Shown one piece after another: positions 14,071 to 38,606 of a stretch of 64,000 bases of DNA. Each line of letters starts with the position of its first letter. The first letter of the stretch is position 1. Location of the stretch: NCBI RefSeq assembly GCF_988243305.1, contig NZ_OZ547136.1; one strand, given 5' to 3'. A model generated the notes under the pieces. The model searched no databases, was not told where the DNA came from, and saw nothing but the letters and a program-made list of their open reading frames with translations. A program made the translations under genes and the position numbers.

Positions 14071-14086
14071 TGGCACGCAATCTGCA
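14071..14086 (+). promoter_or_regulatory. Sigma-54 promoter (-24/-12) for norVW
   Basis: TGGCACGCAATCTGCA matches the TGGCAC-N5-TTGCA consensus, about 48 bp upstream of the norV ATG. Confidence 0.85.
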
Positions 14087-14133
14087 ATTAGCAAGACATC
14101 TTTTTAGAACACGCTGAATAAATTGAGGTTGCT

Positions 14134-15573: not shown

Positions 15574-16703
15574 GCAACGGCATTGTGATCATTGGTTCGG
15601 GCTTCGCCGCCCGCCAACTGGTGAAAAATATTCGCAAACAGGACGCCAGTATTCCATTAACTCTGATTGCCGCCGACAGCATGGATGAGTACAACAAACC
15701 GGATCTCAGCCATGTTATCAGCCAGGGGCAACGTGCCGATGACCTTACCCGCCAGACGGCGGGTGAATTTGCCGAGAAGTTTAATCTGCACCTGTTTCCG
15801 CACACCTGGGTGACGGATATCGATGCCGAAGCCCATGTGGTGAAAAGTCAGAATAATCAGTGGCAATACGACAAGTTAGTGCTGGCAACCGGAGCCAGCG
15901 CCTTTGTCCCGCCAGTGCCTGGGCGTGAGTTAATGCTGACGTTAAATAGTCAGCAAGAGTATCGCGCCTGTGAAACGCAACTGCGGGATGCCCGACGCGT
16001 GTTGATTGTTGGCGGTGGCTTGATTGGTAGCGAACTGGCGATGGATTTTTGTCGTGCAGGCAAAGCGGTCACGCTAATCGACAACGCTGCCAGTATTCTG
16101 GCGTCGTTAATGCCACCGGAAGTAAGCAGCCGCTTGCAGCATCGGTTGACGGAGATGGGCGTTCATCTGCTGTTGAAATCTCAGTTGCAGGGGCTGGAAA
16201 AAACGGATTCTGGCATTCTGGCAACGCTGGACCGCCAGCGCAGCATCGAAGTGGATGCGGTAATTGCCGCCACCGGGCTGCGCCCGGAAACCGCCCTGGC
16301 ACGACGCGCCGGGCTGACGATTAATCGCGGCGTTTGCGTCGATAGTTATCTGCAAACCAGTAATGCCGATATTTATGCGCTGGGCGATTGCGCGGAAATT
16401 AACGGTCAGGTATTGCCGTTCCTCCAGCCGATTCAACTTAGCGCGATGGTGCTGGCAAAAAATCTTCTCGGCAATAACACGCCGCTGAAACTCCCTGCGA
16501 TGCTGGTGAAAATCAAAACGCCGGAATTACCGCTGCATCTGGCAGGCGAAACCCAGCGTCAGGATTTACGCTGGCAAATTAATACCGAACACCAGGGAAT
16601 GGTGGCGCGCGGTGTTGATGATGCTGACCAGCTTCGCGCCTTTGTGGTCAGTGAGGATCGGATGAAAGAGGCGTTTGGATTGTTGAAAACGTTGCCGGTA
16701 TAG
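15570..16703 (+). CDS. norW: NADH:flavorubredoxin reductase
   Basis: 377 aa FAD/NAD(P)-binding oxidoreductase (GSGFAA, GGGLIG), translationally coupled to norV. Confidence 0.95.
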
Positions 16704-16715
16704 GCATGTTTTTCT

Positions 16716-16756
16716 CCCTCGCCCAAAGGGCGAGGGGACTGTCCGCGCTCTTTTTA
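16716..16756 (+). terminator. Hairpin (CCCTCGCCC aaa GGGCGAGGG) with T-run after norW
   Basis: Perfect 9-bp stem; T-tract about 12 nt downstream. Confidence 0.5.
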
Positions 16757-16780
16757 CGCTTAGTTACGCCACATCCGCCA

Positions 16781-19021
16781 CTATGCAGCATGCAGGATGC
16801 GCGCCGCAGCAATAACCCCCTGCCCCAGAGACAAGCCGCCATCACCCGCCGGTAAACTCTGCGGAAAGAGTAATGTGAAATCAGCGAGATAATGCGCCAG
16901 GCGTGTACGCAGCAATCGGTTATGAATAACCCCACCGCTAAATACCAGCGTAGTGATACCGCGCATCGTGGCCTGCTCACGCATCAACGCGGCAAAACCC
17001 TGCGCCAGCGCATCATGAAACGCCCACGCGCGTTGATTAACCGGTGCCAGCCAGTTCAGCCACTGCTGCCAGAAAGTGGCGAGATCCAGTTGATTGTCCA
17101 CCAGCGGTATCGTCACCGGATGCGTCACTCCGTCGCATGAAGCTGCTAGCGCCTCCAGAGCACAAGCCGCTTCACCTTCATAGCTTAACGTGGCTGGCGC
17201 ACAGCCCAGTGCCGCCGCCACAGCATCGAACAAACGTCCACACGATGATGCCAGCGGCGCGTTAATTCCACGCTCAATGGCCCGCGCCAGCACGCTCCAG
17301 TTTTGCTGTTGCACACTTGCCGTTTCAGGGTAATTCTGCCACTCCGGCACAAAGCGCAGGCACTGCGCCAGCAGGTTACGCCACGGCTGCTTCGCCGCCA
17401 AATCGCCCCCCGGAAGCGCCACTGCAGGCAAGCCGCCCAGGTGCTGGCATTCGCGATAGTTCACCCGCAGGCACTCGCCGCCCCATAAAGCGCCGTTCTC
17501 CCCCATACCGATACCGTCGAGCGTCAACGCAATGACATCACCGCCATCCAGTGGCCAGTGATGTTCTGCCAGACACGCCGCCGCATGAGCATGATGATGC
17601 AGCACCGTTTGCGTCGGCAGATTCATTTCGCGCGCCCACTGGCTGGAGACATAGCCCGGATGTGCGTCATGCACAACGTATTGCGGGGTAAAATCGTAGA
17701 TGTTTTGCATCAGGCGTAACGCTTCGCGCCACTGCATCTGGATGCCATCGTCACTTAAATCGCCCAGATGCTGACTCAACACTGCTTGTTCACCGCGCAC
17801 CAGGCAGAAGGTATTTTTCAGATCCGCGCCGAGACACAGCACAGGCGGAACATTTTTAAAGCCCGGAGGCAAAGCCAGCGCATCCGGCACATACCCCCGC
17901 GAACGGCGCAGCATTTCGCCGCTTTCACGCACCACCGAATCATCCATCCGCTGCACGATGTCGCGGTTATGTATCAAGAATCCGTCGGCAATGCCCTGCA
18001 AATCCGCCAGCGCCTGTTCGTTGCTGATAGCCGGTGGTTTACCGCTCAGGTTACCGGAGGTCATCACCAGCGGGCATTGCAGTTCCTGTAACAGCAAATG
18101 CTGGAGCGGGTTCGCAGGCAACATTACCCCGACTTCGTTAAGGCCAGGGGCGATATCATCACAAAGCTCAGGTACATATTTTTTATCCACCAGCACAATC
18201 GGCGCGGCGGGCGTGGTAAGCAACTGGCGCGTAGCGTCTGGTAAACCGTCAGCCACTGGCAACATGACCGCCAGCGGTTTCGCCGGGCGATGTTTGCGCG
18301 CCCGAAGTGTCGCCACCGCGTTACTGTTACGTGCATCGCAGGCAAGATGAAATCCGCCAATCCCTTTGATGGCGACAATGTTGCCCATTTTTAACTGTGC
18401 GATAGCTGCCTGTAATGCCGCCTCTTGTTCCGCATGTTCATCATGACTTACCCATTCAAGATGGGGGCCACACTCCGGGCAGGCCACCGGCTGGGCGTGG
18501 AAGCGACGATCGAGCGGGTCGCGATATTCTTTGTCACAGGCCGGACACAGCGGAAACGCCGCCATCACGGTAAACGGGCGGTCGTAAGGCATCGCGCGAA
18601 TAATGGTGAAACGTGGGCCGCAGTGGGTACAGTTGATAAACGGATAACGATAACGCCGCTCGCCCGGGGTATTCATTTCAGCAAGACAGGCAGGACAAGT
18701 CGCGGCATCGGGAACAATTTGCGTATTCATGACTCCGCCTGTGCTCTGACGGATAGTGAACTCGGTGGGCAGTTGTGACCAGATAAACGGCTCACGCTCG
18801 ACGCTATCAATACGCGCCAGCGGCGGGCAGTGCTGATGCAACTGCACAAGAAACGTTTCCGGGTCTTCCAGCAGCCGGACTTCCACTCCATCGCCGTCAT
18901 TACAGACATCGCCGTGAAGATTTAATTGCTGTGCCAGCTGCCAGACAAACGGACGAAAACCGACGCCCTGCACTTTGCCACGAATACGCAGTTGGACACC
19001 GCAAGATGTGTTTTTTGCCAT
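16781..19021 (-). CDS. hypF: Carbamoyltransferase HypF ([NiFe]-hydrogenase maturation)
   Basis: Start trimmed to [25 protein letters not shown] (acylphosphatase domain), followed by Zn-finger CxxC pairs, YrdC and Kae1-like domains. Confidence 0.95.
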
Positions 19022-19173
19022 TGAGTTATTCCCGCCATCATGAATTGCGTAACCCGCCCAGCCGGACACGACAGCGTCGTATCCGGCAATCACAGGTCGG
19101 CGATACCGCCCGCTCCGTATTCTACGAATATTTCCGGGAATTCCTTTGATGCCAGAACAGTTCAGTAAGATTT

Positions 19174-19701
19174 TTAGAACATCAGCGCCGTACGGCGACG
19201 TTTTTCTGCGCTCAGTTGTTCAAGTTTATTACGATCGACACAAATCAGCGCATGAGTCGGGCAAGCCGCCATACACGCCGGGCCGTCTTCACGATGGTTG
19301 CACAGGTCACATTTATTGGCTTCGGCTTTGTCAGCCCGTACATTCAGCCCCGCGCCGCTGTTGCGAATCACCGGACGTACCACCACTTCCATCGCGCCAT
19401 ACGGGCAAGCCACAACGCAGGTTTTGCAACCAATGCAACGTTCCTGCATCACATGAACAAACCCTTTATCACGGCTGATAGCACCATTCGGGCAGACGTT
19501 AGCGCACGGTGCATCTTCACACTGACGGCAGACGGTCGCCGTAGAAATGTTCACACCTTTAATGACATGGATACGCGGTAAAAATGTTTCCGGGGTCAGC
19601 GATGCACAGTCCTGATTTTCCTGATGAGAAACCACGCACGCCACTTCACAGGTACGGCAACCAATACATTTACTCGCGTCAGCAATGATGAAACGGTTCA
19701 T
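19174..19701 (-). CDS. hydN: Ferredoxin-like electron transport protein HydN (4x[4Fe-4S])
   Basis: Start trimmed to [22 protein letters not shown]; several CxxCxxCxxxCP motifs. Confidence 0.93.
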
Positions 19702-19849
19702 CAAATTCTCCAGCAATGACAGTTAATGCGCCGATACATTCACAAATCATGCCAGTTTTTAATTTACTGTTATTTAAGGAAATTAAATTCTGTAATGCAG
19801 GAAAAACGATGTCATCGACACTAGTGACGATGACATGTGATGACAATGT

Positions 19850-20860
19850 TTATTGCGAAAGAGCAATGAGGGAGCCGCGGCGGATCAGTTTTCCGCTGAA
19901 GGTTTTCGGCGGTGAGAAATCCCCACCATCGAGCATAAAAATCAGCCGTCCAATAATTTCCTGAATCATCTCAGTCACCGGAATTTTTACGCTGGAGAGC
20001 GCCGGAACGATATAGGGGGCAATGGCGATATCATCGAATCCGATAACTGACACCTGCTCTGGCACCGCTACGCCGCGCTCGTGTAACGCTTTCATCGCAC
20101 CTATCGCCATATCGTCGTTACTGGCAACTAACGCGCTAAATTTAGCCCCACGTTCGAGCAACGTTTCTACCCCTTCGGCCCCGCTGGCGGGCGTCCATTT
20201 ACCGTTAGCGATAAGTTTTTCATTGAGCGCAATACCATGCTGCGACAGCGCGTCTTTATACCCGGCAAGACGTTCAATGCTGGTGGGGGAATCCATCGAG
20301 CCGGTAAGGAAAGCAATCTCCTGATGCCCGGCGTTTATCAACTCTGCCACGGCGTTAAAGCTGGTCTGTTTATGATCGCACCAGACGCTATGGCTGCTAT
20401 TTTTGCGCAGGCGGCGATTAAGCACCATTATCGGCTGACTGTGTGCGTCAATGATGTCATCAATCTCATCCACACTTAAAAAACGCGGGTAAATCATAAT
20501 GGCGTCGCAGCGCAAATCCAGCAGATACTGAATCGCCTGGCGCTCTTCTTCGGCGCTGTGTTTACCATCTGCCAATAGCAACTGCCGCCCTTTCTCTTCC
20601 GCCATTCGCGCGGCATGAAACAGTAATTCACTAAAATAAATGCCGTGGTAAAGTGTGTTGGTCACGACCAGCCCCAGCGTCTGAGTACTCTTCGCCGACA
20701 GATTGCGCGCCAGCAAGTTTGGACGGTAACCGCTCTCTTCTACCGCCTGAAACACGCGATCTTTAGTCTCCTGGCTGACGTAGCCATTACCTGAAAGCAC
20801 GCGGGAAACGGTCGCTTTTGAAACCCCGGCGCGCTTCGCCACTTCCAGCATCGTCGTCAT
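19850..20860 (-). CDS. ascG: LacI/GalR-family repressor of the asc operon
   Basis: Start trimmed to MTTMLEVAKRAGVSKATVSRVL (HTH), with periplasmic-binding-protein-like core. Confidence 0.93.
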   Translation of the reverse strand: MTTMLEVAKRAGVSKATVSRVLSGNGYVSQETKDRVFQAVEESGYRPNLLARNLSAKSTQTLGLVVTNTLYHGIYFSELLFHAARMAEEKGRQLLLADGKHSAEEERQAIQYLLDLRCDAIMIYPRFLSVDEIDDIIDAHSQPIMVLNRRLRKNSSHSVWCDHKQTSFNAVAELINAGHQEIAFLTGSMDSPTSIERLAGYKDALSQHGIALNEKLIANGKWTPASGAEGVETLLERGAKFSALVASNDDMAIGAMKALHERGVAVPEQVSVIGFDDIAIAPYIVPALSSVKIPVTEMIQEIIGRLIFMLDGGDFSPPKTFSGKLIRRGSLIALSQ

Positions 20861-20946
20861 CATTTTCATCCCTTTACACGTAATCAACGCAGTGTACTGC
20901 ACCGTTTGCCGATTGTCCTTGCGCAATCGGCGGGAAAAATATTCAG

Positions 20947-20960
20947 GTGACCGGTTTCAC
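20947..20960 (+). promoter_or_regulatory. Putative AscG operator 1 (GTGACCGGTTTCAC)
   Basis: Imperfect palindrome centred on CCGG in the ascG-ascF divergent region. Confidence 0.6.
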
Positions 20961-21020
20961 AAATATAAAAAATGAACAATTAACTCTCTTGCTTATTTAG
21001 TGACAACTATTCATGATTTT

Positions 21021-21035
21021 GTGAAACCGGTTTCC
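21021..21035 (+). promoter_or_regulatory. Putative AscG operator 2 (GTGAAACCGGTTTCC)
   Basis: Contains the perfect 12-bp palindrome GAAACCGGTTTC; second copy of the same motif about 74 bp from operator 1. Confidence 0.65.
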
Positions 21036-21119
21036 TAATTCCGTTTCAGCATCGGCATTTTTCCGTCACGTCGACTGATAACAACTACATCTACCCTACT
21101 GATAACAGGATAAAATCCG

Positions 21120-24010
<2,891 letters not shown>

Positions 24011-24018
24011 GTAACCGT

Positions 24019-24085
24019 GCCGGATGCGGCGTGAACGCCTTATCCGGCCTACAAGGCCCGATAAGCGTTGCGCATCGGGCAATCT
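24019..24085 (+). repeat. BIME / REP pair (GCCGGATGCGGCGTGAACGCCTTATCCGGCCTAC plus inverted partner)
   Basis: Canonical REP sequence and a second palindromic unit immediately after the ascB stop. Confidence 0.85.
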
Positions 24086-24107
24086 GGGGTTTGGCATCAG
24101 TCAAAAA

Positions 24108-24527
24108 TCAAAGAAACCATTCCGGCTTAACGCCAAATCGGGCTGAAAGTGCCTTAATGTGGGATATCGTCAGGGATCGTTGTCCAGATAAAATCTGACT
24201 GACCAGGGATTTAGAGCCGATTTCGTTCTTCAAATCCGCATAGGTCAGATTATGTTGATCAATCAGCGTACGAAGTAACGCCACGCCAACCGGCATTGCT
24301 GCAACGGCTTTGTCGAACTCTGCAAACTTTTCGTTATTGTTTTCATATTCTGCAATGCGGCTCGCCAGAAAGTCGATAAGTGGATTGGTGTCATCTTCTT
24401 CAATCAAATATTCGACCAGTTCCAGTGCTTCACGATAATCATCTTCTGAGTCACTGCCTCCCAGAAAGGGGACTGCATTGACCAGTTCTCTTGTTGCTTT
24501 AACAGCGCGTGCAGCATTAGCAGTCAT
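24108..24527 (-). CDS. HigA-family antitoxin-like protein (C-terminal XRE-type HTH)
   Basis: 162-aa ORF; likely start at MTANAARAVKATRELVNAVPFLGG (about 139 aa). Its layout parallels K-12 HigA/YgjM as I recall it (AVAPFLAG ... ALELV ... IGSKS.VS..LSG.R.LT..H...L..RFG). No HigB-sized partner fits upstream. Confidence 0.6.
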   Translation of the reverse strand: MTANAARAVKATRELVNAVPFLGGSDSEDDYREALELVEYLIEEDDTNPLIDFLASRIAEYENNNEKFAEFDKAVAAMPVGVALLRTLIDQHNLTYADLKNEIGSKSLVSQILSGQRSLTISHIKALSARFGVKPEWFL

Positions 24528-24762
24528 TCTTTGTTCTCTCTGTAGTAACGTGTCAGACGCCCACTTTTCTAAAATGCCAGGTTTGCTCGGCATCATAAGG
24601 CATGGTCAGGAGAGGTTTCAGCGCCCGCTTTTGCGCGTATTCGCTGTCACTCATTGGCAGATATTCGGTAAAGCTGGTGGCCTGTGCAGGCAGCACAAAG
24701 CAAAATAAAAAAGCGCACATCCCTGTTCTGATTTTCAATTCCCTGAATTCCTTACTGAAAAA

Positions 24763-25233
24763 CTACTCTTCTTCCACCGCTAGCTGCGCAAATCCACCGT
24801 TCCCTTCCCAGCCTTCCAGCCGTTGATAAACGGTTTCTACCGCGTCTTTAATCGGCTGGGTCATCGGGTAGTAAAAGCCGACGATATCCGGCTGGATGCC
24901 GAGGAAAATCACTTCGCCAATGTCTTCTTTTAACTGGTCGATAAGGTAGTTCAGCGGCATGTTATGGGTAGTCATCATAAACATCTCGGCGATGTCATCC
25001 GGGTCGATGATGCGGATCTCGCCGGGGTTTAGCCCCATATCCGTGGCGTCGACAATCAGCAGTCGCGTAGGGCGCAGTTCACGGATGGCGACGATGTCGT
25101 TTTCCGGTGCGCTACCGCCGTCAATCACCACCCAGTGACCTTTCGGCGCGGCGGCGCACTTTTCCGCCAGCAGCGGACCTGCGCCATCATCGCCCATCAT
25201 GCTATTGCCAACACAGAGTAAAACGTCAGTCAC
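24763..25233 (-). CDS. hycI: Hydrogenase 3 maturation endopeptidase HycI
   Basis: 156 aa recognised as HycI ([20 protein letters not shown]). Confidence 0.95.
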   Translation of the reverse strand: MTDVLLCVGNSMMGDDGAGPLLAEKCAAAPKGHWVVIDGGSAPENDIVAIRELRPTRLLIVDATDMGLNPGEIRIIDPDDIAEMFMMTTHNMPLNYLIDQLKEDIGEVIFLGIQPDIVGFYYPMTQPIKDAVETVYQRLEGWEGNGGFAQLAVEEE

Positions 25234-25636
25234 GCAATCTCCTCACCATCAAATAGATGGCGTTTTCCTGATGAATATCATGCAACATACTTAACAGCAT
25301 TGTACTCCATTCTTTCTGCTGCGAAGTTTGCGCTGCCCGGGCTTTATCGAATGCGTTGGCCAACATCGGCACATGGTTAATGTCGATGACGATCTCACCA
25401 TATTTCGGCACGCCTTCCATTTTGCGGCGGGCTTCGCTGCCCGCCTCCAGAGTGGCAATCCATGCCAGATATTCATCCCACGGACAGGTGAGCGCCGCTT
25501 CCAGGCAATCGATAACCCCAAGGTGGTGACCAATCGCCAGGCTGTAATAGACCACCTGCTGCGCCTCGGCGGGCGTGGCATCGTTCTCATCAATAAATTT
25601 ACGGCTCAGTTGACTGAACACCACCTTTTCGCTCAT
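25226..25636 (-). CDS. hycH: Formate hydrogenlyase assembly protein HycH
   Basis: 136 aa recognised as HycH. Confidence 0.93.
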
Positions 25637-26400
25637 CGGATACGCGCCTCTTCAACAACATGATTCAGATGGCTGACAATCTCGTTCAGACGCGGATCGT
25701 TTTCCGCTTCCAGCCAGCGAGCAACCTGCTCTTCGCCCTGCCCTAACTGTGTCAGGAAGTCATCGGCAATCTGACGACCGTAACGATAACCTGCCAGGCG
25801 GCGTGCTTCGCGATCTACTTTCACACGCAGCGGCTGCACCATATCGCCATGCAGGATCTCCGCCGGTTGTTCATCCTGCTCACCCGGCCCACGGGCGTGA
25901 ATTTTCTGCTCCAGCAGGCCGAGCGCCATTGCAAAGCCGTACAGCGTGGCGGCAGGCGTTGGCGGGCAGCCAGGGATATAAACATCCACCGGGACGATTT
26001 TATCCGTACCGCCCCACACGCAGTAGAGATCGTGGAAGATCCCGCCGCTGTTACCGCAGGCACCGTAGGAGATACAAATTTTCGGGTCCGGCGCGGACTG
26101 CCACGCACGCAGCGCAGGGGATCGCATTGCACGGGTGACCGCGCCGGTAAACAGTAAAATATCCGCATGACGCGGTGAAGGAACGACTTTAATGCCGAAG
26201 CGTTCTGCATCAAACAGCGGCGAAAGCGTGGCAAAAATTTCGATTTCGCAGCCGTTGCAGCCGCCGCAGTCCACGCGGTAAACGTAGGCAGAACGTTTGA
26301 TTTTTTTCAGTAACGACGCCTTCATGCTGGCGATGGATTCATCCACCGTCATCGGGACCGGAATGCCGTTGGCGTCACGGGGGCCTAATAAATTGCTCAT
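25633..26400 (-). CDS. hycG: FHL complex [NiFe] hydrogenase small subunit (NuoB-like)
   Basis: 255 aa recognised as HycG, with Fe-S cysteine motifs. Confidence 0.95.
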
Positions 26401-26942
26401 CAGATGGCCTCTTTCATATGGCGAGTCAGTTCAATACGGTCGGACGGCACCAGGCATTTCTGGCGCTTACATTCCGGGCAAGTCTCAAAGCTTTCGCGGT
26501 GGGTTTCCGCGCGGCTGTCACCATTGTGCTTAAGCAGCGCAATGGCGTAGTCGATCTCTTTCTGAACGGCAAAAGGACGATTGCAGACGCGGCAGTTGCA
26601 CAGCGCGAAACGGGACTGTTGCAGGAAGTCTTCTTTCTTCCACACCGCCAGTTCGTACTCTTGCGACAGTTTGATCGCCGCCGTCGGGCAAACTTCTTCG
26701 CAGCGTCCACAGAAGATGCAGCGCCCGAGATTAAACTCCCAGGCAAGCTCTCCTGTGGCGAGGTCAGTTTCAACCGTTAAGGCGTTTGACGGGCAGGCAT
26801 TGACGCAGGCCGCGCAGCCGATGCACTGCTGCGGGTTCTGCTCTGGCTTACCACGGAAGTTTTTATCAACCGCAATCGGCTCCAGCGGATAAGACGAGGT
26901 CGCCGTGCCGGTTTTGATGACTTTTTTGATAAAGGTAAACAT
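26400..26942 (-). CDS. hycF: FHL complex iron-sulfur subunit (2x[4Fe-4S])
   Basis: 180 aa with [12 protein letters not shown] and [12 protein letters not shown] ferredoxin motifs. Confidence 0.95.
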
Positions 26943-26951
26943 GGCGATTCC

Positions 26952-28661
26952 TTATTTCAGCGGCGAGTTTTTACGCTCAATGCTGTAGCGCTCGAGTTCT
27001 TTGTACGGCACCACTTTGCTCTTTTTCTTACGCACATCGACCACGGTCATGCGGTCGGTACAGGAGTAGCAAGGGTCCAGGCTACCGATAATCAGCGGCG
27101 CATCGGAAACGGTGTTGCCGCGCAGCATGTAGCGCAGGGTCGGCCAGTTCGCGTAGGTCGCCGCACGGCAGCGCCAGCGGTACAGCTTCTGGTTGTCGCC
27201 GGTCATGCTCCAGTGGATATCGTCGCCGCGCGGCGCTTCGGCAAAGCCCAGCGCGAAACGGTGCGGAATGTAGGTAAAGCCTTCCACCATCAGCGGGCCG
27301 CCCGGCAAGTTATCCAGACCGTAATCGATCATATTCAGCGCGGTATAGACTTCGTTGATACGCACTTTCAGACGGGAAATAACGTCGCAGCCCTGCTCGC
27401 TGTGGACTTCCATTGGCAGCAGGCCATAACCAACAAACGGGTGATCGGCACGGGTATCACGGGCGTGACCGCTGGCACGGACCATCGGGCCAACGTTACT
27501 GAAGTCGCGGGCAATTTCCGGGTCCAGACGACCAATGCCGACGGTGCGCTGTTCCATGTTCGGTGTGCTCAGCAGCACATCCACCAGCTCCTGCACTTCA
27601 CGACGCATCTGTTGTGCCAGCTGGCGGGTCTGGATCATGTCGTCTTTCAGCAGATCGCGACGAATCCCGCCGATCAGGTTCAGGCCGTAGGTTTTACGTG
27701 CACCGGTAAGGATCTCTGCCATTTTCATGGAGGTTTCACGCACGCGGAAGAACTGCATAAAGCCGGAGTCGAAGCCGGTAAAGTGACAGGCGAGGCCGAG
27801 GTTGAGCAGATGCGAGTGCAGGCGTTCTACCTCCAGCAGAATGGCGCGGATCATCTGCGCACGTTCTGGCACCTGAATACCCATCGCGTTTTCCACCGAC
27901 GTGGTGTAGGCGGTGCTGTGAGCAAAGCCGCAGATCCCGCACACACGGTCAGAGAGGAAGGTCACTTCGTTGTAACCCATGCGGGTTTCCGCCAGTTTTT
28001 CCATGCCGCGATGGACATAGAACAGGCGGTAGTCGGCGTCGATAATGTTTTCGCCATCGACGAACAGACGGAAGTGACCCGGTTCGTCGGAAGTGACGTG
28101 CAGCGGACCAATCGGCACGACATTGTTTTTCTTGTCGCCCAGTTCGTTGATGAACTCGTAGGTTTCAGCATCGGTAGTCGGTGCCGGACGCTGACGATAA
28201 TCCATGCTGTCTTTACGCAGCGGATAAAGTTCATCCGGCCAGTCATCCGGCAGCACCAGACGGCGTTCATCTGGCAGACCAACCGGAATCAAACCGTACA
28301 TATCGCGCACTTCGCGCTCGCCCCACACCGCCGCCGGAACGCGCGGTGTCACGGACGGATATTCCGGTTTGTTGGCGTCAACTTCGACGCGAACCGTGAT
28401 CCAGCACTTAGTGCCCTTCTCCATCGACAGCACGTAATAAACGGCGTAATGACCATTCAGTTTGCGTTCGTCGTTACCAAACAGCACCGACAGCCAGCCA
28501 CCCTGCTTGTAATAGAGAAACTCCACTACTTCCGGCAGATAGTTCACCTTTACGGTGACAGTCAGCTGATCTTTGGTCTGCCAGGCGTGGTCCAGCACGA
28601 CGCCCGGAAATGCCTCATTCAGCGCGGCGAGATAATGTTGACCTAATTTTTCTTCAGACAT
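26952..28661 (-). CDS. hycE: Hydrogenase 3 large subunit
   Basis: Start trimmed to MSEEKLGQHY; NuoC/NuoD-like fusion with C-terminal DPCxSC Ni-binding motif. Confidence 0.96.
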   Translation of the reverse strand: MSEEKLGQHYLAALNEAFPGVVLDHAWQTKDQLTVTVKVNYLPEVVEFLYYKQGGWLSVLFGNDERKLNGHYAVYYVLSMEKGTKCWITVRVEVDANKPEYPSVTPRVPAAVWGEREVRDMYGLIPVGLPDERRLVLPDDWPDELYPLRKDSMDYRQRPAPTTDAETYEFINELGDKKNNVVPIGPLHVTSDEPGHFRLFVDGENIIDADYRLFYVHRGMEKLAETRMGYNEVTFLSDRVCGICGFAHSTAYTTSVENAMGIQVPERAQMIRAILLEVERLHSHLLNLGLACHFTGFDSGFMQFFRVRETSMKMAEILTGARKTYGLNLIGGIRRDLLKDDMIQTRQLAQQMRREVQELVDVLLSTPNMEQRTVGIGRLDPEIARDFSNVGPMVRASGHARDTRADHPFVGYGLLPMEVHSEQGCDVISRLKVRINEVYTALNMIDYGLDNLPGGPLMVEGFTYIPHRFALGFAEAPRGDDIHWSMTGDNQKLYRWRCRAATYANWPTLRYMLRGNTVSDAPLIIGSLDPCYSCTDRMTVVDVRKKKSKVVPYKELERYSIERKNSPLK

Positions 28662-28678
28662 GCTCAAACTCTCTTTAA

Positions 28679-29602
28679 TCACGCCGCCAGCAAGGAGACG
28701 AACGCTAAAAATGCAAAGCCAAACCCAGCCCAGGTAATGCGCGGAGTAATATCAAGACGCAGACGGGCCATGCTGTTTTCGAACAGCGCGATAACCAGTA
28801 CGCCGACGACCAGTTTGACGATGGCAATCACCAGCGCCAGCAGCAGCCCACCGGCGGTGAAGGTTTCCATTTGTCCCCACGGAATAAACACCCCGACGAA
28901 CATCTGCAACACCACCAGCTGTTTCAGGCTGATAGCCCATTTCATGACGCCAAAGCCACTGCCGCTATACTCAGAGAGCGGACCTTCCTGCAACTCCTGC
29001 TCGGCTTCCGCCAGGTCGAACGGCAGTTTGCCCATTTCGATAAAGGTGGCGAATGCACAGGCACAAAGCGCCAGCACCAGCGGGATGCTCTGGCTCAGCG
29101 GCCAGTGATAAACGGTGTCGGTGATGTTGCTGATGTTGGTGGAACCGGCAACCTGCGCCGCAACCCACAGACCAAGCAGCAGCATCGGTTCGACCAGCAC
29201 GCCAAGCATCGCTTCACGGCTCGCGCCGATAGCGGTAAACGGGCTACCGGTATCCAGACCAGAAATGGCAAAGAAGAAACGCGCGATGGCAAAGAGATAC
29301 AGTAAAGTGATCAAATCGCCCAGCTGCGGCAGCGGAGAACCAACGGTCACCACCGGCAGCGCAGTAGCGATAGTCAGCATGACGCCCACCATCACATACG
29401 GCGTCAGGCGGAACACCCAGCCGGAGGCATCCGGGCCAACACTCTGGCGGCCCAGCAGTTTGATAATGTCGCGATACTCCTGCAACACGCCCGGCCCGCG
29501 ACGGTTATGCAAGCGGGCGCGCGCCACGCGGGTTATACCGGAGAGCAGCGGCGCAACGGCAAATAACACCAGCGCCTGAATTAACGGATATAAAACACTC
29601 AT
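28679..29602 (-). CDS. hycD: FHL membrane subunit (NuoH-like)
   Basis: 307 aa polytopic membrane protein recognised as HycD. Confidence 0.94.
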   Translation of the reverse strand: MSVLYPLIQALVLFAVAPLLSGITRVARARLHNRRGPGVLQEYRDIIKLLGRQSVGPDASGWVFRLTPYVMVGVMLTIATALPVVTVGSPLPQLGDLITLLYLFAIARFFFAISGLDTGSPFTAIGASREAMLGVLVEPMLLLGLWVAAQVAGSTNISNITDTVYHWPLSQSIPLVLALCACAFATFIEMGKLPFDLAEAEQELQEGPLSEYSGSGFGVMKWAISLKQLVVLQMFVGVFIPWGQMETFTAGGLLLALVIAIVKLVVGVLVIALFENSMARLRLDITPRITWAGFGFAFLAFVSLLAA

Positions 29603-29604
29603 TC

Positions 29605-31431
29605 TCAGGCTCCTCGTGAAACAATAATCACCACCAGTACCGCCAGTTCAACCAGCGCCATCCGGCGGAACAGCAACGCACTCCCCTCGCACTGCCAGCC
29701 CGGTACCAGCGACACCGGATTCAGCCATTTGCGCAGTTTCAGCACCGGCGCAAACGCCTGTTTCACCGGCATGGCAAAACCGTGAGCAGTAATCACCATT
29801 GATTTTTCATGGTCGTAGCCGCACACCCAGGCCGCGCCGCGGGAACGCGACGGCAAACGATCGCCTTTGCAAATCGCCATAATGATGAATGGCAGCAGCG
29901 GGCAGGCAATCAGCAGCAACGTGATCATGGGTTGAGAAACGGTGGTGTTAGCAGGCTCCAGCGGCAGAGGTACAGCAGCAGAGAGCATCGGCAGCAGCCA
30001 CGGCGCAGCAACACCGCCAATTACGCAGCAAATCGCCAGTGCCACTACGCTTACGCTCATCAGGAGCGGCGCACAGGTGGCGTTTTCGGCTTCTTTGGTA
30101 CGCGGCGCGCCGAGGAACGTGACGCCATAGACTTTCGCCATACACATCACCGCCAGCGCACCGGTAATTGCCAGACCCACTGCGAGCAGCGGCCCCAGCA
30201 GACGGGCAACAAACGCGCCACTATTGCTCAGTTTGAAGAAGGATTGATAGATAACCCATTCCCCGGCAAACCCGTTCAGCGGCGGCAACGCAGCCATTGC
30301 CATCAGCCCAACTAACATGGCGATGGAGATAACCGGCATTTTCTTGCCAATACCACCGAGTTTTTCGATATCGCGATGACCGGTACGGAACCAGACGCTC
30401 CCCGCCCCGAGGAACAGTACGCTTTTGAACAGGCTATGGTTAAGCAGATGGTACAGACCACCAACCAGGCCAAGAGCAATCAGCGCCGGTTGTTCGAGCG
30501 CAATACCCGTTACGCCAGCGCCCAGCCCCAGCAGGATGATGCCGATATTTTCCAGGGTGTGGTAAGCCAGCAGGCGCTGGATGTTGTGCTCCATCAGCGC
30601 ATACAGACCGCCGACGAACGCGGTGATCATACCGAGCACCAGCAGCGCGATCCCCCACCACAGCGGTGCGTTACCGCCCAGCAGCGACAGGGTTAAAATG
30701 CCCAGCAGGCCGATTTTCATCACCACCGTAGAAAACAACGCGGCAGCTGGCGCAGAGGCGTTAGCATGTGCCTGCGGCACCCAGCCGTGCAGCGGAATAA
30801 TCCCGGCCAGCAGGCCAAAGCCAATCACACCGAGCAGCCAGATATCGGAACCGAGCGGCAGCTGTTGCATACGCATATCCAGCAGGCGCAGATCCAGCGT
30901 GCCGTAACGCTGCCACAGCAGCCAGCAGGCAATCGCCAGCAGCAGAGTGCCAAGACGCCCCAGCGCAAACCACAGTTTGCCCTCTTTGCTGTTGCTGGTA
31001 AGGAACACCGCGCACAGGGCCATGATTTCGGCCATTACCACGAACATGCTGAGGTTGCTGGCAATGACGGCGCAGACGGCGGCAGCCATCAACATATTGA
31101 TCTGCAAGCCGTTGCACTTCACCTGCGCGTGGCGATGCCAGTCAATGTTGTAGAGGCTGACAAACAGACCGCACAGACCGAGCGTAATCAGCCAAATCGC
31201 GTTAAGCGGAGAGATTTGCACATCGTAGCTTACCAGCGACAGCGCACCGCTCACGCCAACCGCGCCAGTCAGCACAGTAAAGCCCGCGGCTGCCGTATAC
31301 AGGCTACCAACCGCGCCGCCAATTCCGGCTATCCAGCCGCTTAGCGCCTTTTGAAAAGAAAAGAGAAATGCCAGAACAGCGGCGGCGACAAACCACGCCA
31401 CGCCGCTATTGATCAGGGAAATTGCGCTCAT
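29605..31431 (-). CDS. hycC: FHL membrane subunit (NuoL/M antiporter-like)
   Basis: 608 aa polytopic membrane protein recognised as HycC. Confidence 0.94.
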   Translation of the reverse strand: MSAISLINSGVAWFVAAAVLAFLFSFQKALSGWIAGIGGAVGSLYTAAAGFTVLTGAVGVSGALSLVSYDVQISPLNAIWLITLGLCGLFVSLYNIDWHRHAQVKCNGLQINMLMAAAVCAVIASNLSMFVVMAEIMALCAVFLTSNSKEGKLWFALGRLGTLLLAIACWLLWQRYGTLDLRLLDMRMQQLPLGSDIWLLGVIGFGLLAGIIPLHGWVPQAHANASAPAAALFSTVVMKIGLLGILTLSLLGGNAPLWWGIALLVLGMITAFVGGLYALMEHNIQRLLAYHTLENIGIILLGLGAGVTGIALEQPALIALGLVGGLYHLLNHSLFKSVLFLGAGSVWFRTGHRDIEKLGGIGKKMPVISIAMLVGLMAMAALPPLNGFAGEWVIYQSFFKLSNSGAFVARLLGPLLAVGLAITGALAVMCMAKVYGVTFLGAPRTKEAENATCAPLLMSVSVVALAICCVIGGVAAPWLLPMLSAAVPLPLEPANTTVSQPMITLLLIACPLLPFIIMAICKGDRLPSRSRGAAWVCGYDHEKSMVITAHGFAMPVKQAFAPVLKLRKWLNPVSLVPGWQCEGSALLFRRMALVELAVLVVIIVSRGA

Positions 31432-32039
31432 TTAGCCTCTCCACTTTGAGCCTGCTGAAACAAGGTGAGATCGCCAAAGTCCGTGTTAAAAGTCAGCTCA
31501 CGCTTACGTTTGCTGACGCGGGCGATATCGGTGTTATCCACCAGATGCAGGGCTTTAGTCGGGCACATCCGCACGCAGGCCGGACCTTGTTCATCAAAAC
31601 TACAAAGGTCACATTTGACGGCGATCGCGCGAATACCTGGCACCCAGTCAAGCAATGTGCTGACACGCGCCGGAGCAGGCGGTGCCGGTGGCGCTTTCGG
31701 GGTATTGGCGTTTGCCGGAATATCCAGCGGACGGCTGCCGGAAAATTCAATTGCGCCAAACGGGCAGGCGATGCCGCACAGTTTGCAGCTTACGCACAGA
31801 CTTTCATTCAACTGCACGGCCCCATCAACGCGGGTGATGGCGTTAACCGGGCAAACCACCGCACAGGGCGCATCTTCACAGTGGTGACAGAGCTGCGGCG
31901 CAGATTCTTTTTCATTGAGCATCACTCGCAGGCGCGGCATTGATTGCAGGCCGTGCTGGCGATGCGTCTCTGAACAGGCGGCCTCACAGGTGTGGCAGCC
32001 GATACAGAGCGTGGAGTCAGCAATTACAAAACGATTCAC
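31428..32039 (-). CDS. hycB: FHL iron-sulfur subunit (4x[4Fe-4S])
   Basis: 203 aa with several CxxCxxCxxxCP motifs. Confidence 0.94.
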   Translation of the reverse strand: MNRFVIADSTLCIGCHTCEAACSETHRQHGLQSMPRLRVMLNEKESAPQLCHHCEDAPCAVVCPVNAITRVDGAVQLNESLCVSCKLCGIACPFGAIEFSGSRPLDIPANANTPKAPPAPPAPARVSTLLDWVPGIRAIAVKCDLCSFDEQGPACVRMCPTKALHLVDNTDIARVSKRKRELTFNTDFGDLTLFQQAQSGEAK

Positions 32040-32163
32040 CAGGCATTCCTCAGGTGATTGTCATTTTTGACGAAAACATGCCGATGAAATGTCATTTTCG
32101 ACACTCATCGACACGCCCATCCCCAAACAGGCGTAACGCCTGCAAAACGGGCAAAGCCTCAGC

Positions 32164-32625
32164 TCATGCTGCCGGGCTTTGTCCCTTTACCAGTTGGCTT
32201 AAATTCACCGGCACATTGTTTTCAATGGCGGTGTATAAGCTGTCGTAAACGCCAGCGATTTTTTCGAGATAGTGTTCCAGAACCTGTTCGCGATCGCGGA
32301 TGTTGACCTTGCCATCAATCATGCCGTCAATGCTCAGTTGCGCCTGCGCAATCCGCTGTTTGTCTTCACCATCTTTTGTTTCGACGTAATACTCGATGGT
32401 GTGGCTGTTAAAGCCATCCGCCAGGGTGACGTAAATGCGAAAATGTTCAAAAAGGACGAAACAGAGTTCTTTGTCCGGCGCGCAGCTCATGGCGTGATGC
32501 AGGCGCGCTTTCGATAACGTGATCCCCTGAACCAGCGAATTGCAGTAGATGTGCCACTGGTCCTGTAGGCGACGATGCCGCTGTGCGATGTAATCGGCTT
32601 TCTCGCTTATTTCCCAAATAGTCAT
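32164..32625 (-). CDS. hycA: Formate hydrogenlyase regulatory protein HycA
   Basis: 153 aa recognised as HycA; first gene of the hyc operon. Confidence 0.93.
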   Translation of the reverse strand: MTIWEISEKADYIAQRHRRLQDQWHIYCNSLVQGITLSKARLHHAMSCAPDKELCFVLFEHFRIYVTLADGFNSHTIEYYVETKDGEDKQRIAQAQLSIDGMIDGKVNIRDREQVLEHYLEKIAGVYDSLYTAIENNVPVNLSQLVKGQSPAA

Positions 32626-32661
32626 TGTCAGGTTACCCGTTTAACAGAGATGCCAGCTTTA

Positions 32662-32677
32662 AGCATTTTTTGTGCCA
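32662..32677 (-). promoter_or_regulatory. Sigma-54 promoter for the hyc operon
   Basis: Minus strand reads TGGCACAAAAAATGCT (GG-N10-GC) about 40 bp upstream of hycA. Confidence 0.7.
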
Positions 32678-32790
32678 ACTTTTAATTTATTGTTATTAAA
32701 GCGATTTTTAAGCTAAAGATGAATTTCGTCGCCGTGTCGACGTGTCATTTCGACATCATCGACATTATTCACCGCAGGGATAATCAACAC

Positions 32791-32806
32791 TGGCACAATT
32801 ATTGCT
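32791..32806 (+). promoter_or_regulatory. Sigma-54 promoter for the hyp operon
   Basis: TGGCACAATTATTGCT is a perfect -24/-12 element about 30 bp upstream of hypA; TCGAC-rich repeats upstream (about 32725-32760) are consistent with an FhlA UAS. Confidence 0.75.
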
Positions 32807-32836
32807 TGTAGCTGGCAATAGTTAATGGGAGGCGAT

Positions 32837-33187
32837 ATGCACGAAATAACCCTCTGCCAACGGGCACTGGAATTGATCGAACAGCAGGCCGCAAAACACG
32901 GCGCAAAACGCGTAACTGGGGTCTGGCTCAAAATTGGCGCATTTTCTTGTGTCGAAACCAGCTCTCTTGCCTTTTGTTTTGATCTGGTTTGCCGCGGCAG
33001 CGTGGCGGAAGGTTGTAAACTGCACCTCGAAGAACAAGAGGCCGAATGCTGGTGTGAAACATGCCAACAGTATGTGACGCTACTGACCCAGCGCGTCCGC
33101 CGCTGTCCACAGTGTCATGGTGACATGCTACAGATTGTGGCAGACGACGGTTTACAGATTCGGCGGATAGAAATAGACCAGGAGTGA
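32837..33187 (+). CDS. hypA: Hydrogenase nickel insertion protein HypA
   Basis: Start trimmed to MHEITLCQRALELIEQ; zinc-finger CxxC ... CxxC. Confidence 0.95.
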   Translation: MHEITLCQRALELIEQQAAKHGAKRVTGVWLKIGAFSCVETSSLAFCFDLVCRGSVAEGCKLHLEEQEAECWCETCQQYVTLLTQRVRRCPQCHGDMLQIVADDGLQIRRIEIDQE

Positions 33188-33190
33188 GCG

Positions 33191-34063
33191 ATGTGTACAA
33201 CATGCGGTTGCGGTGAAGGCAACCTGTATATCGAGGGTGATGAACATAACCCTCATTCCGCGTTTCGTAGCGCGCCATTTGCCCCGGCGGCACGCCCGAA
33301 GATGAAAATCACCGGCATTAAAACGCCTGAATTTACCCCCAGCCAGACTGAAGAAGGCGACCTGCATTACGGTCATGGCGAAGCGGGCACTCACGCGCCG
33401 GGCATGAGCCAGCGTCGGATGCTGGAAGTCGAAATTGACGTGCTGGACAAAAATAACCGTCTGGCTGAACGCAACCGCGCGCGCTTTGCTGCCCGCAAGC
33501 AACTAGTGCTCAACCTGGTTTCCAGCCCTGGTTCCGGTAAAACCACCCTGCTGACGGAAACCTTAATGCGCCTGAAAGACAGCGTTCCGTGCGCGGTTAT
33601 TGAAGGCGACCAGCAAACCGTGAACGATGCCGCGCGCATTCGCGCTACCGGCACACCAGCGATTCAGGTGAATACCGGTAAAGGCTGCCATCTTGACGCA
33701 CAGATGATTGCCGACGCCGCGCCGCGCCTGCCACTGGACGATAACGGTATTCTGTTTATCGAAAACGTCGGCAACCTCGTGTGCCCGGCCAGCTTCGATC
33801 TCGGTGAAAAACACAAAGTGGCGGTGCTTTCCGTTACCGAAGGTGAAGACAAACCGCTGAAATATCCGCATATGTTTGCCGCAGCTTCGCTGATGCTGCT
33901 CAACAAAGTTGACTTGCTGCCGTATCTCAACTTTGACGTTGAGAAGTGCATCGCCTGCGCCCGCGAAGTCAATCCAGAAATTGAAATCATCCTTATTTCC
34001 GCCACCAGCGGCGAAGGGATGGACCAGTGGCTGAACTGGCTGGAGACACAGCGATGTGCATAG
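33191..34063 (+). CDS. hypB: Hydrogenase nickel incorporation GTPase HypB
   Basis: 290 aa with N-terminal [10 protein letters not shown] metal-binding motif and [10 protein letters not shown]-loop. Confidence 0.96.
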
Positions 34064-36454: not shown

Positions 36455-36527
36455 TAAAATTCTAAATCTCCTATAGTTAGTCAATGACCTTTTGCACCGC
36501 TTTGCGGTGCTTTCCTGGAAGAACAAA

Positions 36528-38606
36528 ATGTCATATACACCGATGAGTGATCTCGGACAACAAGGGTTGTTCGACATCACTCGGACACTATTGCAGCAGC
36601 CCGATCTGGCCTCGCTGTGTGAGGCTCTTTCGCAACTGGTAAAGCGTTCTGCGCTCGCCGACAACGCGGCTATTGTGTTGTGGCAAGCGCAGACTCAACG
36701 TGCGTCTTATTACGCATCGCGTGAAAAAGACACCCCCATTAAATATGAAGACGAAACTGTTCTGGCACACGGTCCGGTACGCAGCATTTTGTCGCGCCCT
36801 GATACGCTGCATTGCAGTTACGAAGAATTTTGTGAAACCTGGCCGCAGCTGGCCGCAGGTGGGCTATACCCAAAATTTGGTCACTATTGCCTGATGCCAC
36901 TGGCGGCAGAAGGGCATATTTTTGGTGGCTGTGAATTTATTCGTTATGACGATCGCCCCTGGAGCGAAAAAGAGTTCAATCGTCTGCAAACATTTACGCA
37001 GATCGTTTCTGTCGTCACCGAACAAATCCAGAGTCGAGTCGTTAACAATGTTGACTATGAGTTGTTATGCCGGGAACGCGATAACTTCCGCATCCTGGTC
37101 GCCATCACCAACGCGGTGCTTTCCCGCCTGGATATGGACGAACTGGTCAGCGAAGTCGCCAAAGAAATCCATTACTATTTCGACATTGACGATATCAGCA
37201 TTGTCTTACGCAGCCACCGTAAAAACAAACTCAACATCTACTCCACTCACTATCTTGATAAACAACATCCCGCCCACGAACAGAGCGAAGTCGATGAAGC
37301 CGGAACCCTCACCGAACGCGTGTTCAAAAGCAAAGAGATGCTGCTGATTAATCTCCACGAGCGGGACGATTTAGCCCCCTATGAACGCATGTTGTTCGAC
37401 ACCTGGGGCAACCAGATTCAAACCTTGTGCCTGTTACCGCTGATGTCTGGCGATACCATGCTGGGCGTGCTGAAACTGGCGCAATGCGAAGAGAAAGTGT
37501 TTACCACTACCAATTTGAATTTACTGCGCCAGATTGCCGAACGTGTGGCAATCGCTGTCGATAACGCCCTCGCCTATCAGGAAATCCATCGTCTGAAAGA
37601 ACGGCTGGTTGATGAAAACCTCGCCCTGACCGAGCAGCTCAACAATGTTGATAGTGAATTTGGCGAGATTATTGGCCGCAGCGAAGCCATGTACAGCGTA
37701 CTTAAACAAGTTGAAATGGTGGCGCAAAGTGACAGTACTGTTCTGATCCTCGGTGAAACTGGTACAGGTAAAGAGCTGATTGCCCGCGCGATCCATAATC
37801 TCAGTGGGCGTAATAATCGCCGCATGGTCAAAATGAACTGCGCGGCGATGCCTGCCGGATTGCTGGAGAGCGATCTGTTTGGTCATGAGCGTGGGGCTTT
37901 TACCGGTGCCAGCGCCCAGCGTATCGGTCGTTTTGAACTGGCGGATAAAAGCTCCCTGTTCCTCGACGAAGTGGGCGATATGCCACTGGAGTTACAGCCG
38001 AAGTTGCTGCGTGTATTACAGGAACAGGAGTTTGAACGTCTCGGCAGCAACAAAATCATTCAGACGGACGTGCGTCTAATCGCCGCAACTAACCGCGATC
38101 TGAAAAAAATGGTCGCCGACCGAGAGTTCCGTAGCGATCTCTATTACCGCCTGAACGTATTCCCGATCCACCTGCCGCCACTACGCGAGCGTCCGGAAGA
38201 TATTCCGCTGCTGGCGAAAGCCTTTACCTTCAAAATTGCCCGTCGTCTGGGGCGTAATATCGACAGCATTCCTGCCGAGACGCTGCGCACCTTGAGCAAC
38301 ATGGAGTGGCCGGGTAACGTACGCGAACTGGAAAACGTCATTGAGCGCGCAGTATTGCTGACACGCGGCAACGTGCTGCAGCTGTCATTGCCAGATATTG
38401 TTTTACCGGAACCAGAAACGCCGCCTGCCGCAACAGTTGTCGCTCAGGAGGGCGAAGATGAATATCAGTTGATTGTTCGCGTGCTGAAAGAAACTAACGG
38501 CGTGGTTGCCGGGCCTAAAGGCGCTGCGCAACGTCTGGGGCTGAAACGCACGACCCTGCTGTCACGGATGAAGCGGCTTGGAATTGATAAATCGGCATTG
38601 ATTTAA
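36528..38606 (+). CDS. fhlA: Formate hydrogenlyase transcriptional activator FhlA (sigma-54 dependent)
   Basis: Start trimmed to MSYTPMSDLGQQGLFDITR; two GAF regions, AAA+ domain ([14 protein letters not shown]) and C-terminal HTH. Confidence 0.96.
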   Translation: MSYTPMSDLGQQGLFDITRTLLQQPDLASLCEALSQLVKRSALADNAAIVLWQAQTQRASYYASREKDTPIKYEDETVLAHGPVRSILSRPDTLHCSYEEFCETWPQLAAGGLYPKFGHYCLMPLAAEGHIFGGCEFIRYDDRPWSEKEFNRLQTFTQIVSVVTEQIQSRVVNNVDYELLCRERDNFRILVAITNAVLSRLDMDELVSEVAKEIHYYFDIDDISIVLRSHRKNKLNIYSTHYLDKQHPAHEQSEVDEAGTLTERVFKSKEMLLINLHERDDLAPYERMLFDTWGNQIQTLCLLPLMSGDTMLGVLKLAQCEEKVFTTTNLNLLRQIAERVAIAVDNALAYQEIHRLKERLVDENLALTEQLNNVDSEFGEIIGRSEAMYSVLKQVEMVAQSDSTVLILGETGTGKELIARAIHNLSGRNNRRMVKMNCAAMPAGLLESDLFGHERGAFTGASAQRIGRFELADKSSLFLDEVGDMPLELQPKLLRVLQEQEFERLGSNKIIQTDVRLIAATNRDLKKMVADREFRSDLYYRLNVFPIHLPPLRERPEDIPLLAKAFTFKIARRLGRNIDSIPAETLRTLSNMEWPGNVRELENVIERAVLLTRGNVLQLSLPDIVLPEPETPPAATVVAQEGEDEYQLIVRVLKETNGVVAGPKGAAQRLGLKRTTLLSRMKRLGIDKSALI

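Follow-up and report, generated by a model that had tools for sequence, protein, structure and literature searches.

The interval from 32626 to 32836 is very probably the known hycA-hypA control region of the Escherichia coli formate regulon, in which two outward-pointing sigma-54 promoters, one for the hyc operon and one for the hyp operon, are accompanied by an FhlA enhancer that would act as in the mechanism proposed below. It lies in a 64,000-nucleotide stretch of DNA, here called the window, which was analyzed as a whole. This divergent sigma-54 control region was already known; the result is a correct re-identification of it and nothing new. The divergent sigma-54 (NtrA-dependent) promoters of the E. 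coli K-12 hycA-hypA region were reportedly described by Lutz and coworkers in Mol Microbiol in 1990.

The window is a piece of E. coli chromosome. Positions 32100-33300 were matched with at least 95% identity in 5425 of 5426 complete E. coli genomes, and one strain matched at 100%. The coordinates of hycA and hypA were taken over from the RefSeq annotation of a 100%-identical strain and showed that the interval is exactly the 211-bp region between the two genes. On the left is hycA (32164-32625, minus strand), the first gene of the hyc operon, encoding the formate hydrogenlyase regulator that counteracts FhlA; on the right is hypA (32837-33187, plus strand), the first gene of hypABCDE-fhlA. 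Both assignments are backed by NCBIfam equivalog matches (for hycA, 301 bits with a cut-off of 180), and the same annotation places hycBCD beyond hycA and hypBCDE beyond hypA. The last gene of the hyp transcription unit is fhlA (36528-38606, plus strand), encoding the formate-sensing sigma-54 activator, which was recognized by the NCBIfam equivalog NF011958 (1548 bits, cut-off 830) in a match covering residues 13-704 of the open reading frame 36492-38606. Located 3.7 kb downstream, this gene means that the cognate enhancer-binding AAA+ activator is encoded in the window. A scan of 31500-33500 against Rfam gave no credible RNA family.

The first-pass annotation had proposed divergent sigma-54 promoters for hyc and hyp, and both motifs were present where it had placed them. 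Scoring was performed at all positions on both strands of the 64 kb with the RpoN matrix of PMC7658346, which is based on 186 promoters. The −24/−12 element of the hyp operon, TGGCACAATTATTGCT (32791-32806, plus strand), scored 19.1 bits and ranked first in the window; it has no mismatch to TGGCAC-N5-TTGCW, and its GG and GC dinucleotides are exactly 10 bp apart. The corresponding element of the hyc operon, TGGCACAAAAAATGCT (32662-32677, minus strand), scored 15.2 bits, ranked third, and has one mismatch to the same consensus (A for T before GC). The two motifs point outward within the 211-bp divergent spacer. A score of at least 19 bits, as for the hypA motif, is expected 0.017 times per dinucleotide-shuffled 64 kb; a score of at least 15.2 bits, as for the hycA motif, is expected about once and is unremarkable alone. 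The plain sigma-54 consensus pattern gave 5 matches in the 64 kb with 3.6 expected, which is not significant alone. Because the motif scores were so uneven relative to chance, the case for the promoters rests on their placement, their conservation, and published experiments.

The published experiments place sigma-54 at both motifs. Table 1 of Bonocora et al. 2015 (PMC4591121) lists the sigma-54 ChIP-seq peak OS27 for hycA (TTGGCACAAAAAATGCT, minus strand, 26 nt to the gene) and the peak OS28 for hypA (CTGGCACAATTATTGCT, plus strand, 20 nt to the gene). With FAT values of 91 and 201, respectively, these are among the strongest peaks in the E. coli genome, and both promoters are flagged there as experimentally confirmed in EcoCyc (PMC4591121). 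The centers of the OS27 and OS28 motifs are 128 bp apart, the same distance as in the window. Genomic SELEX showed binding of RpoN holoenzyme to the hycA/hypA spacer (PMC8743547). In Salmonella the counterpart sites were bound by sigma-54 in ChIP-chip, and microarray analysis gave sigma-54-dependent differences of 26-fold for hyc and 5.6-fold for hyp (PMC3844500). According to the literature cited in PMC4591121 and PMC3844500, formate induction of both operons is lost in an rpoN mutant. Activation of the two operons is attributed to FhlA (PMC4591121, PMC8743547, PMC3844500, PMC4987338). Comparison with published promoter data (ChIP-seq, EcoCyc, and the Salmonella results) thus favors the reading given by the annotation.

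From the geometry of the motifs, transcription of hyc is predicted to start at 32651 (minus strand), 12 nt downstream of the C of the −12 element and 26 nt upstream of the hycA start codon, and that of hyp at 32817 (plus strand), 20 nt before the hypA ATG. Both distances agree with those in PMC4591121 Table 1. The hypA ribosome-binding site (Shine-Dalgarno sequence), GGAGGC at 32828-32833 on the plus strand, is at least 85% conserved among 81 sequences. The segments 32651-32677 and 32791-32817 form a 27-nt inverted repeat, TGGCACAAwwwwTGCTTrwAGCTGGCA, which is 81% complementary and runs from the −24 element (−26) to the predicted start (+1). Past the −12 element this symmetry was found only in Escherichia sequences and is lost in other genera.

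Further sigma-54 motifs were seen elsewhere in the window. The norV promoter TGGCACGCAATCTGCA (14071-14086, plus strand) had the second-best RpoN matrix score and matches ChIP-seq peak OS25 of PMC4591121; the hydN-hypF promoter is TGGCATGATTTGTGAA (19739-19754, minus strand). Compared with the K-12 coordinates (PMC4591121), the distance between the norV and hydN motifs is 62 bp shorter in the window, and that between the hydN and hycA motifs is 594 bp longer. Because the spacing of sigma-54 motifs from 14078 to 32670 differs from that in K-12, the window strain carries indels in the asc/hyc interval. A third sigma-54-like motif near the interval, TGGCACATCTACTGCA (32541-32556, minus strand, 15.0 bits), is found within hycA, directed at hycB. 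We do not regard it as a conserved promoter, since its letters follow from the conserved hycA codons W-H-I-Y-C-N (residues W24-N29), its score varies from 4.2 to 19 bits in relatives, about 20 of 80 loci have TGT for TGC and hence no −12 C, and it is absent from the sigma-54 ChIP-seq tables. We conclude that it is probably a by-product of the hycA coding sequence. A terminator scan gave nothing above shuffle expectation. The hyp operon has an internal promoter, and for that reason hypA was searched for an FNR box (TTGAT-N4-ATCAA with at most two mismatches); none was found within the gene.

Conservation was examined by scanning one genome per species with HycA. The scan yielded 80 loci from about 20 genera, including Escherichia, Salmonella, Citrobacter, Enterobacter, Klebsiella, Raoultella, Kluyvera, Kosakonia, Lelliottia, Pseudocitrobacter, and others, with HycA identities from 63% to 100%. 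In all 80 of these Enterobacteriaceae loci hypA is divergent from hycA, the spacer being 188-223 bp long, and a sigma-54 motif is present on each side. The 3' end of the hyc motif is 35-38 nt from the hycA ATG in every locus, and the start of the hyp motif is 44-50 nt from the hypA ATG, with one locus at 58 nt. The conserved blocks of the alignment were both −24/−12 elements, GGAGGC, a TTTA...TG block next to the hyc promoter, and positions 32740-32764.

No other block outside the promoters is as well conserved in the intergenic region as this last one, ACGTGTCATTTCGACATCATCGACA (32740-32764), and its TGTCATTTCG core is at least 85% identical among the 81 sequences from about 20 genera. We regard it as an FhlA-type site (site 2), consisting of TGTC-N5-GACA followed by TCGACA. 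The FhlA consensus of Leonhartsberger et al. 2000, taken from PMC4987338, reads CATTTCGTACGAAATG, and its half-site CATTTCG occurs at 32746-32752. The FhlA matrix used for scoring, which has 14 columns derived from 13 characterized sites and is printed in PMC7658346, assigned 16.3 bits to 32751-32764, and only one match in the window scored higher. The matrix misses the most conserved element, TGTCATTTCGACA, because its spacer is one base too short. A second candidate, site 1, is AATTTCGTCGCCGTGTCGAC at 32722-32741, identified by sequence, with the half-site ATTTCGT at 32723-32729; it is conserved in Escherichia and Salmonella and is not alignable in more distant genera. The full 16-bp palindrome of the consensus was not found in the intergenic segment, which contains half-sites only.

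The annotation had drawn attention to this segment as rich in GTCGAC and TCGAC, and all the elements it listed were found: GTCGAC at 32736-32741, TCGAC at 32750-32754 and 32759-32763, and, in addition, TCGTC at 32726-32730. The count of TCGAC alone is weak, being reached by 28 of 200 shuffles. Its proposal that the segment is an FhlA upstream activating sequence is strengthened by the half-site, the matrix match, and the conservation described above, and has to be refined in that the segment is probably the enhancer of hyc and a second cluster is present in the hycA-hycB spacer. Direct binding of FhlA, and loss of formate- and FhlA-dependent activation on deletion, are said to have been described in 1994 by Schlensog and by Hopper and in 2000 by Leonhartsberger. 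The word TTTCGWC occurs 21 times in the window; 8 of these copies fall within 1.4 kb (32069-33434) around hycA and hypA, 4 of them in the two FhlA-type clusters. In relatives the two copies within hycA differ at synonymous sites, and intragenic copies were therefore treated as chance occurrences. In Klebsiella and Raoultella spacers (L037, L056, and L061) the TGTCATTTCGWCA core is replaced by GACATGTCGATGAC with about 12 extra bases, a variant similar to TGTCGATGACA at the hydN site of E. coli. These two genera carry the enhancer-core variant TGTCGATGAC.

The conserved TTTA...TG block next to the hyc promoter, which separates this promoter from the FhlA-type sites, corresponds to an IHF-like site, TAACAATAAATTA (32683-32695, minus strand), with one mismatch to the consensus WATCAANNNNTTR. 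In 75 of 81 sequences the best IHF-like match had the same location, 18-19 nt before TGGCA; mismatches to the consensus numbered 0-1 in 57 sequences and 2-3 in the other 24, E. coli itself having 1. In the alignment no conserved bend site was found on the hyp side of the intergenic cluster. IHF has been named as an activator of both hyc and hyp (PMC2636881).

The highest FhlA matrix score in the window, 17.5 bits, was obtained outside the annotated interval, for TGTCATTTTCGACA at 32090-32103 in the spacer between hycA and hycB. It is part of a second FhlA-type cluster (32059-32113) with the arrangement TGTCATTTTTGACG ... TGTCATTTTCGACA ctc ATCGACA, in which TGTCATTTTTGACG (32059-32072) scored 12.1 bits. 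The layouts of the two clusters are parallel, TGTCATTTTCGACA-ctc-ATCGACA in the spacer corresponding to TGTCATTTCGACA-tc-ATCGACA in the intergenic region, and can be written in common as TGTCATTT(T)CGACA-N2-3-ATCGACA. The 16-mer GTCATTTTTGACGAAA of the spacer cluster is at least 95% identical among 77 distinct sequences and exceeds every part of the hycA-hypA region in conservation; TCGACAC and TCGACA beside it are also conserved, and the conserved core of the cluster spans 32060-32113. The cluster adjoins the hycB ribosome-binding site and has no promoter of its own nearby. Places with at least four of the hexamers TGTCGA, TCGACA, TGTCAT, and ATGACA in 50 nt numbered exactly three in the 64 kb: the intergenic region, the hycA-hycB spacer, and 19806-19845 upstream of hydN. 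All three belong to the FhlA regulon, and 1 of 200 shuffles gave any such cluster, a statistic that is optimistic because the hexamers were chosen after inspection of the sites. The hycA-hycB spacer is 124 bp long in the window, 124-146 bp in Escherichia, Salmonella, and Citrobacter, and 67-97 bp in other genera. In the longer spacers (in the window, around 32114-32193) the extra part contains hairpins that differ between species; that of E. coli is CAGGCGTTACGCCTG with TTTGGGG after it on the hyc strand. It may represent a partial terminator separating hycA from hycB.

The presence of two clusters raises the question of which serves which promoter. Distances were counted from the starts predicted above, 32651 (minus) and 32817 (plus). 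The intergenic cluster is centered at −93 to −101 from the hyc start, comparable with about −97 for the cluster upstream of the hydN promoter and about −107 for that upstream of the fdhF promoter, and in all three cases (hyc, hydN, and fdhF) the cluster is separated from its promoter by sequence that is A+T-rich or IHF-like. From the hyp start the intergenic cluster is centered only at −65 to −73, and the spacer cluster is about −730 away. FhlA reportedly binds between hycA and hycB, in a region reported by Schlensog et al. in 1994 and Lutz et al. in 1991 to be needed for formate induction of hyp. Schlensog et al. in 1994 reportedly assigned the spacer cluster to hyp, and the primary literature is said to have assigned the intergenic cluster to hyc. 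In the accessible literature outside the primary FhlA papers, no statement on the position of the hyp enhancer was found. From the geometry together with these reports, we infer that the spacer cluster probably acts on the hyp promoter as a remote enhancer, from a distance of about 730 bp. Because the top-scoring spacer cluster probably serves hyp, the intergenic cluster is most likely the enhancer of hyc rather than one common to both promoters.

The strongest competitor is an arrangement in which one shared intergenic enhancer drives both promoters and the spacer cluster is accessory, as a second anchor of an FhlA loop or in the control of hycB. The intergenic cluster lies between the two promoters and upstream of both, it has the same internal layout as the spacer cluster, and the restriction of the intergenic length to 188-223 bp in every one of the 80 loci would be in keeping with a fixed three-part geometry. 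Enhancer-binding proteins in general act in either orientation and at variable distance (PMC3844500). This arrangement nevertheless fits several observations poorly: the center of the intergenic cluster is 65-73 bp from the hyp start as opposed to 93-107 bp at hyc, hydN, and fdhF; the hyp side lacks a conserved bend site; and there would be a second, more strongly conserved cluster without a nearby promoter to serve. The reported need for the hycA-hycB region in formate induction of hyp also speaks against it. We consider a shared enhancer to be a minority possibility, appreciably less probable than separate enhancers for hyc and hyp.

More speculatively, the two clusters, which are 650 bp apart, might be bridged by a single FhlA oligomer with hycA looped out, forming a two-enhancer assembly that feeds both promoters, and GTCATTTTTGACGAAA might also act on the expression of hycB as a roadblock or an mRNA element. 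We think this unlikely and prefer the assignment of the intergenic cluster to hyc and of the spacer cluster to hyp.

It is very improbable that the TCGAC-rich repeats are bound by another regulator, such as ModE, NarL, or HycA, with FhlA acting only from elsewhere. The literature does name another regulator of hyc, ModE, as a secondary activator (PMC2636881), and the failure of the 14-mer FhlA matrix to recognize TGTCATTTCGACA would be in keeping with such a protein. Against this, the TGTCATTTCGACA element carries the published FhlA half-site CATTTCG and is overlapped by the 16.3-bit matrix match. Its words are also present in front of hydN and fdhF, both likewise activated by FhlA, and the element is conserved along with sigma-54 promoters, which need an enhancer-binding protein. 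The idea that the motifs are chance matches and that transcription comes from ordinary sigma-70 promoters can practically be dismissed: the hycA motif score and the number of consensus matches are within chance for 64 kb and there is one weak sigma-70-like match (32825-32798, minus strand), but the sigma-70 scan as a whole gave that 1 match versus 1.2 in shuffles and thus nothing above expectation, ChIP-seq peaks of sigma-54 coincide with both motifs (PMC4591121), and both are kept at a fixed distance in 80 of 80 loci.

With FhlA as the activator, the region would work as follows. Sigma-54 RNA polymerase would wait in closed complexes on the outward promoters at 32662-32677 (hycABCDEFGHI) and 32791-32806 (hypABCDE-fhlA), and FhlA would bind the TGTC/GACA-type repeats between them (32722-32764). 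FhlA binds formate through its N-terminal domain (PMC11291172); formate bound there would lead the AAA+ domain to hydrolyze ATP and to remodel the closed complex into an open one. A bend of the IHF type at 32683-32695 may bring the FhlA sites, about 93-101 bp upstream, to the polymerase at hyc. At hyp, FhlA bound at 32059-32113, about 730 bp away, would loop to the promoter and is most likely its main feed. Two feedback loops follow from the gene order, a positive one in that the hyp transcript carries fhlA, and a negative one in that the hyc transcript begins with hycA, the product of which counteracts FhlA.

Fermentative hydrogen production and pH homeostasis in enteric bacteria are controlled by the hyc and hyp promoters, which are a routine target of biohydrogen engineering. 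The practical yield of the analysis is a set of exact window coordinates for the promoters, the putative bend site, and both FhlA-type clusters, together with an 80-genome footprint that shows which bases are constrained. The probable dependence of the hyp promoter on a remote enhancer inside the hyc operon matters when hycA is deleted or the hyc promoter is replaced.

The closest known system is the hycA-hypA region of E. coli K-12, which is the same locus in another strain, with identical motifs, the same 128-bp spacing of motif centers, and the same start-codon distances of 26 and 20 nt; the window strain differs from it only by indels elsewhere, between norV, hydN, and hycA. In the hycA-hypA region of Salmonella enterica (PMC3844500), the divergent sigma-54 sites are separated by the same 113-bp gap and the enhancer core is conserved (GACATGTCATTTCGTCATTGTCGACAT in L010), whereas the stretch from the −12 element to the start site has diverged and the 27-nt promoter symmetry of E. 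coli is lost.

The FhlA upstream activating sequences of fdhF and hydN-hypF contain the same words as the region described here (TTTCGWC, GTCA-N4-TGAC, and TGTC-N5-6-GACA). The K-12 fdhF upstream region, examined as a separate sequence, has TTTCGTCA and GTCA-N4-TGAC. The hydN cluster in the window, TGTCATCACATGTCATCGTCACTAGTGTCGATGACATCG (19806-19845), is centered about 97 bp upstream with an A+T-rich stretch in between. Both systems resemble the present one in having the cluster about 100 bp upstream of the sigma-54 promoter with an A+T-rich stretch between them. Unlike fdhF and hydN, the hyc/hyp locus has two clusters and two promoters interleaved around hycA, with one cluster inside the hyc transcription unit. 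IHF-assisted sigma-54 promoters of the nifH and glnHp2 type have the order of elements proposed here for hyc, enhancer, bend site, and −24/−12 element; compared with them, the putative IHF-like core at hyc is unusually near the −24 element, as it starts 18 nt before TGGCA.
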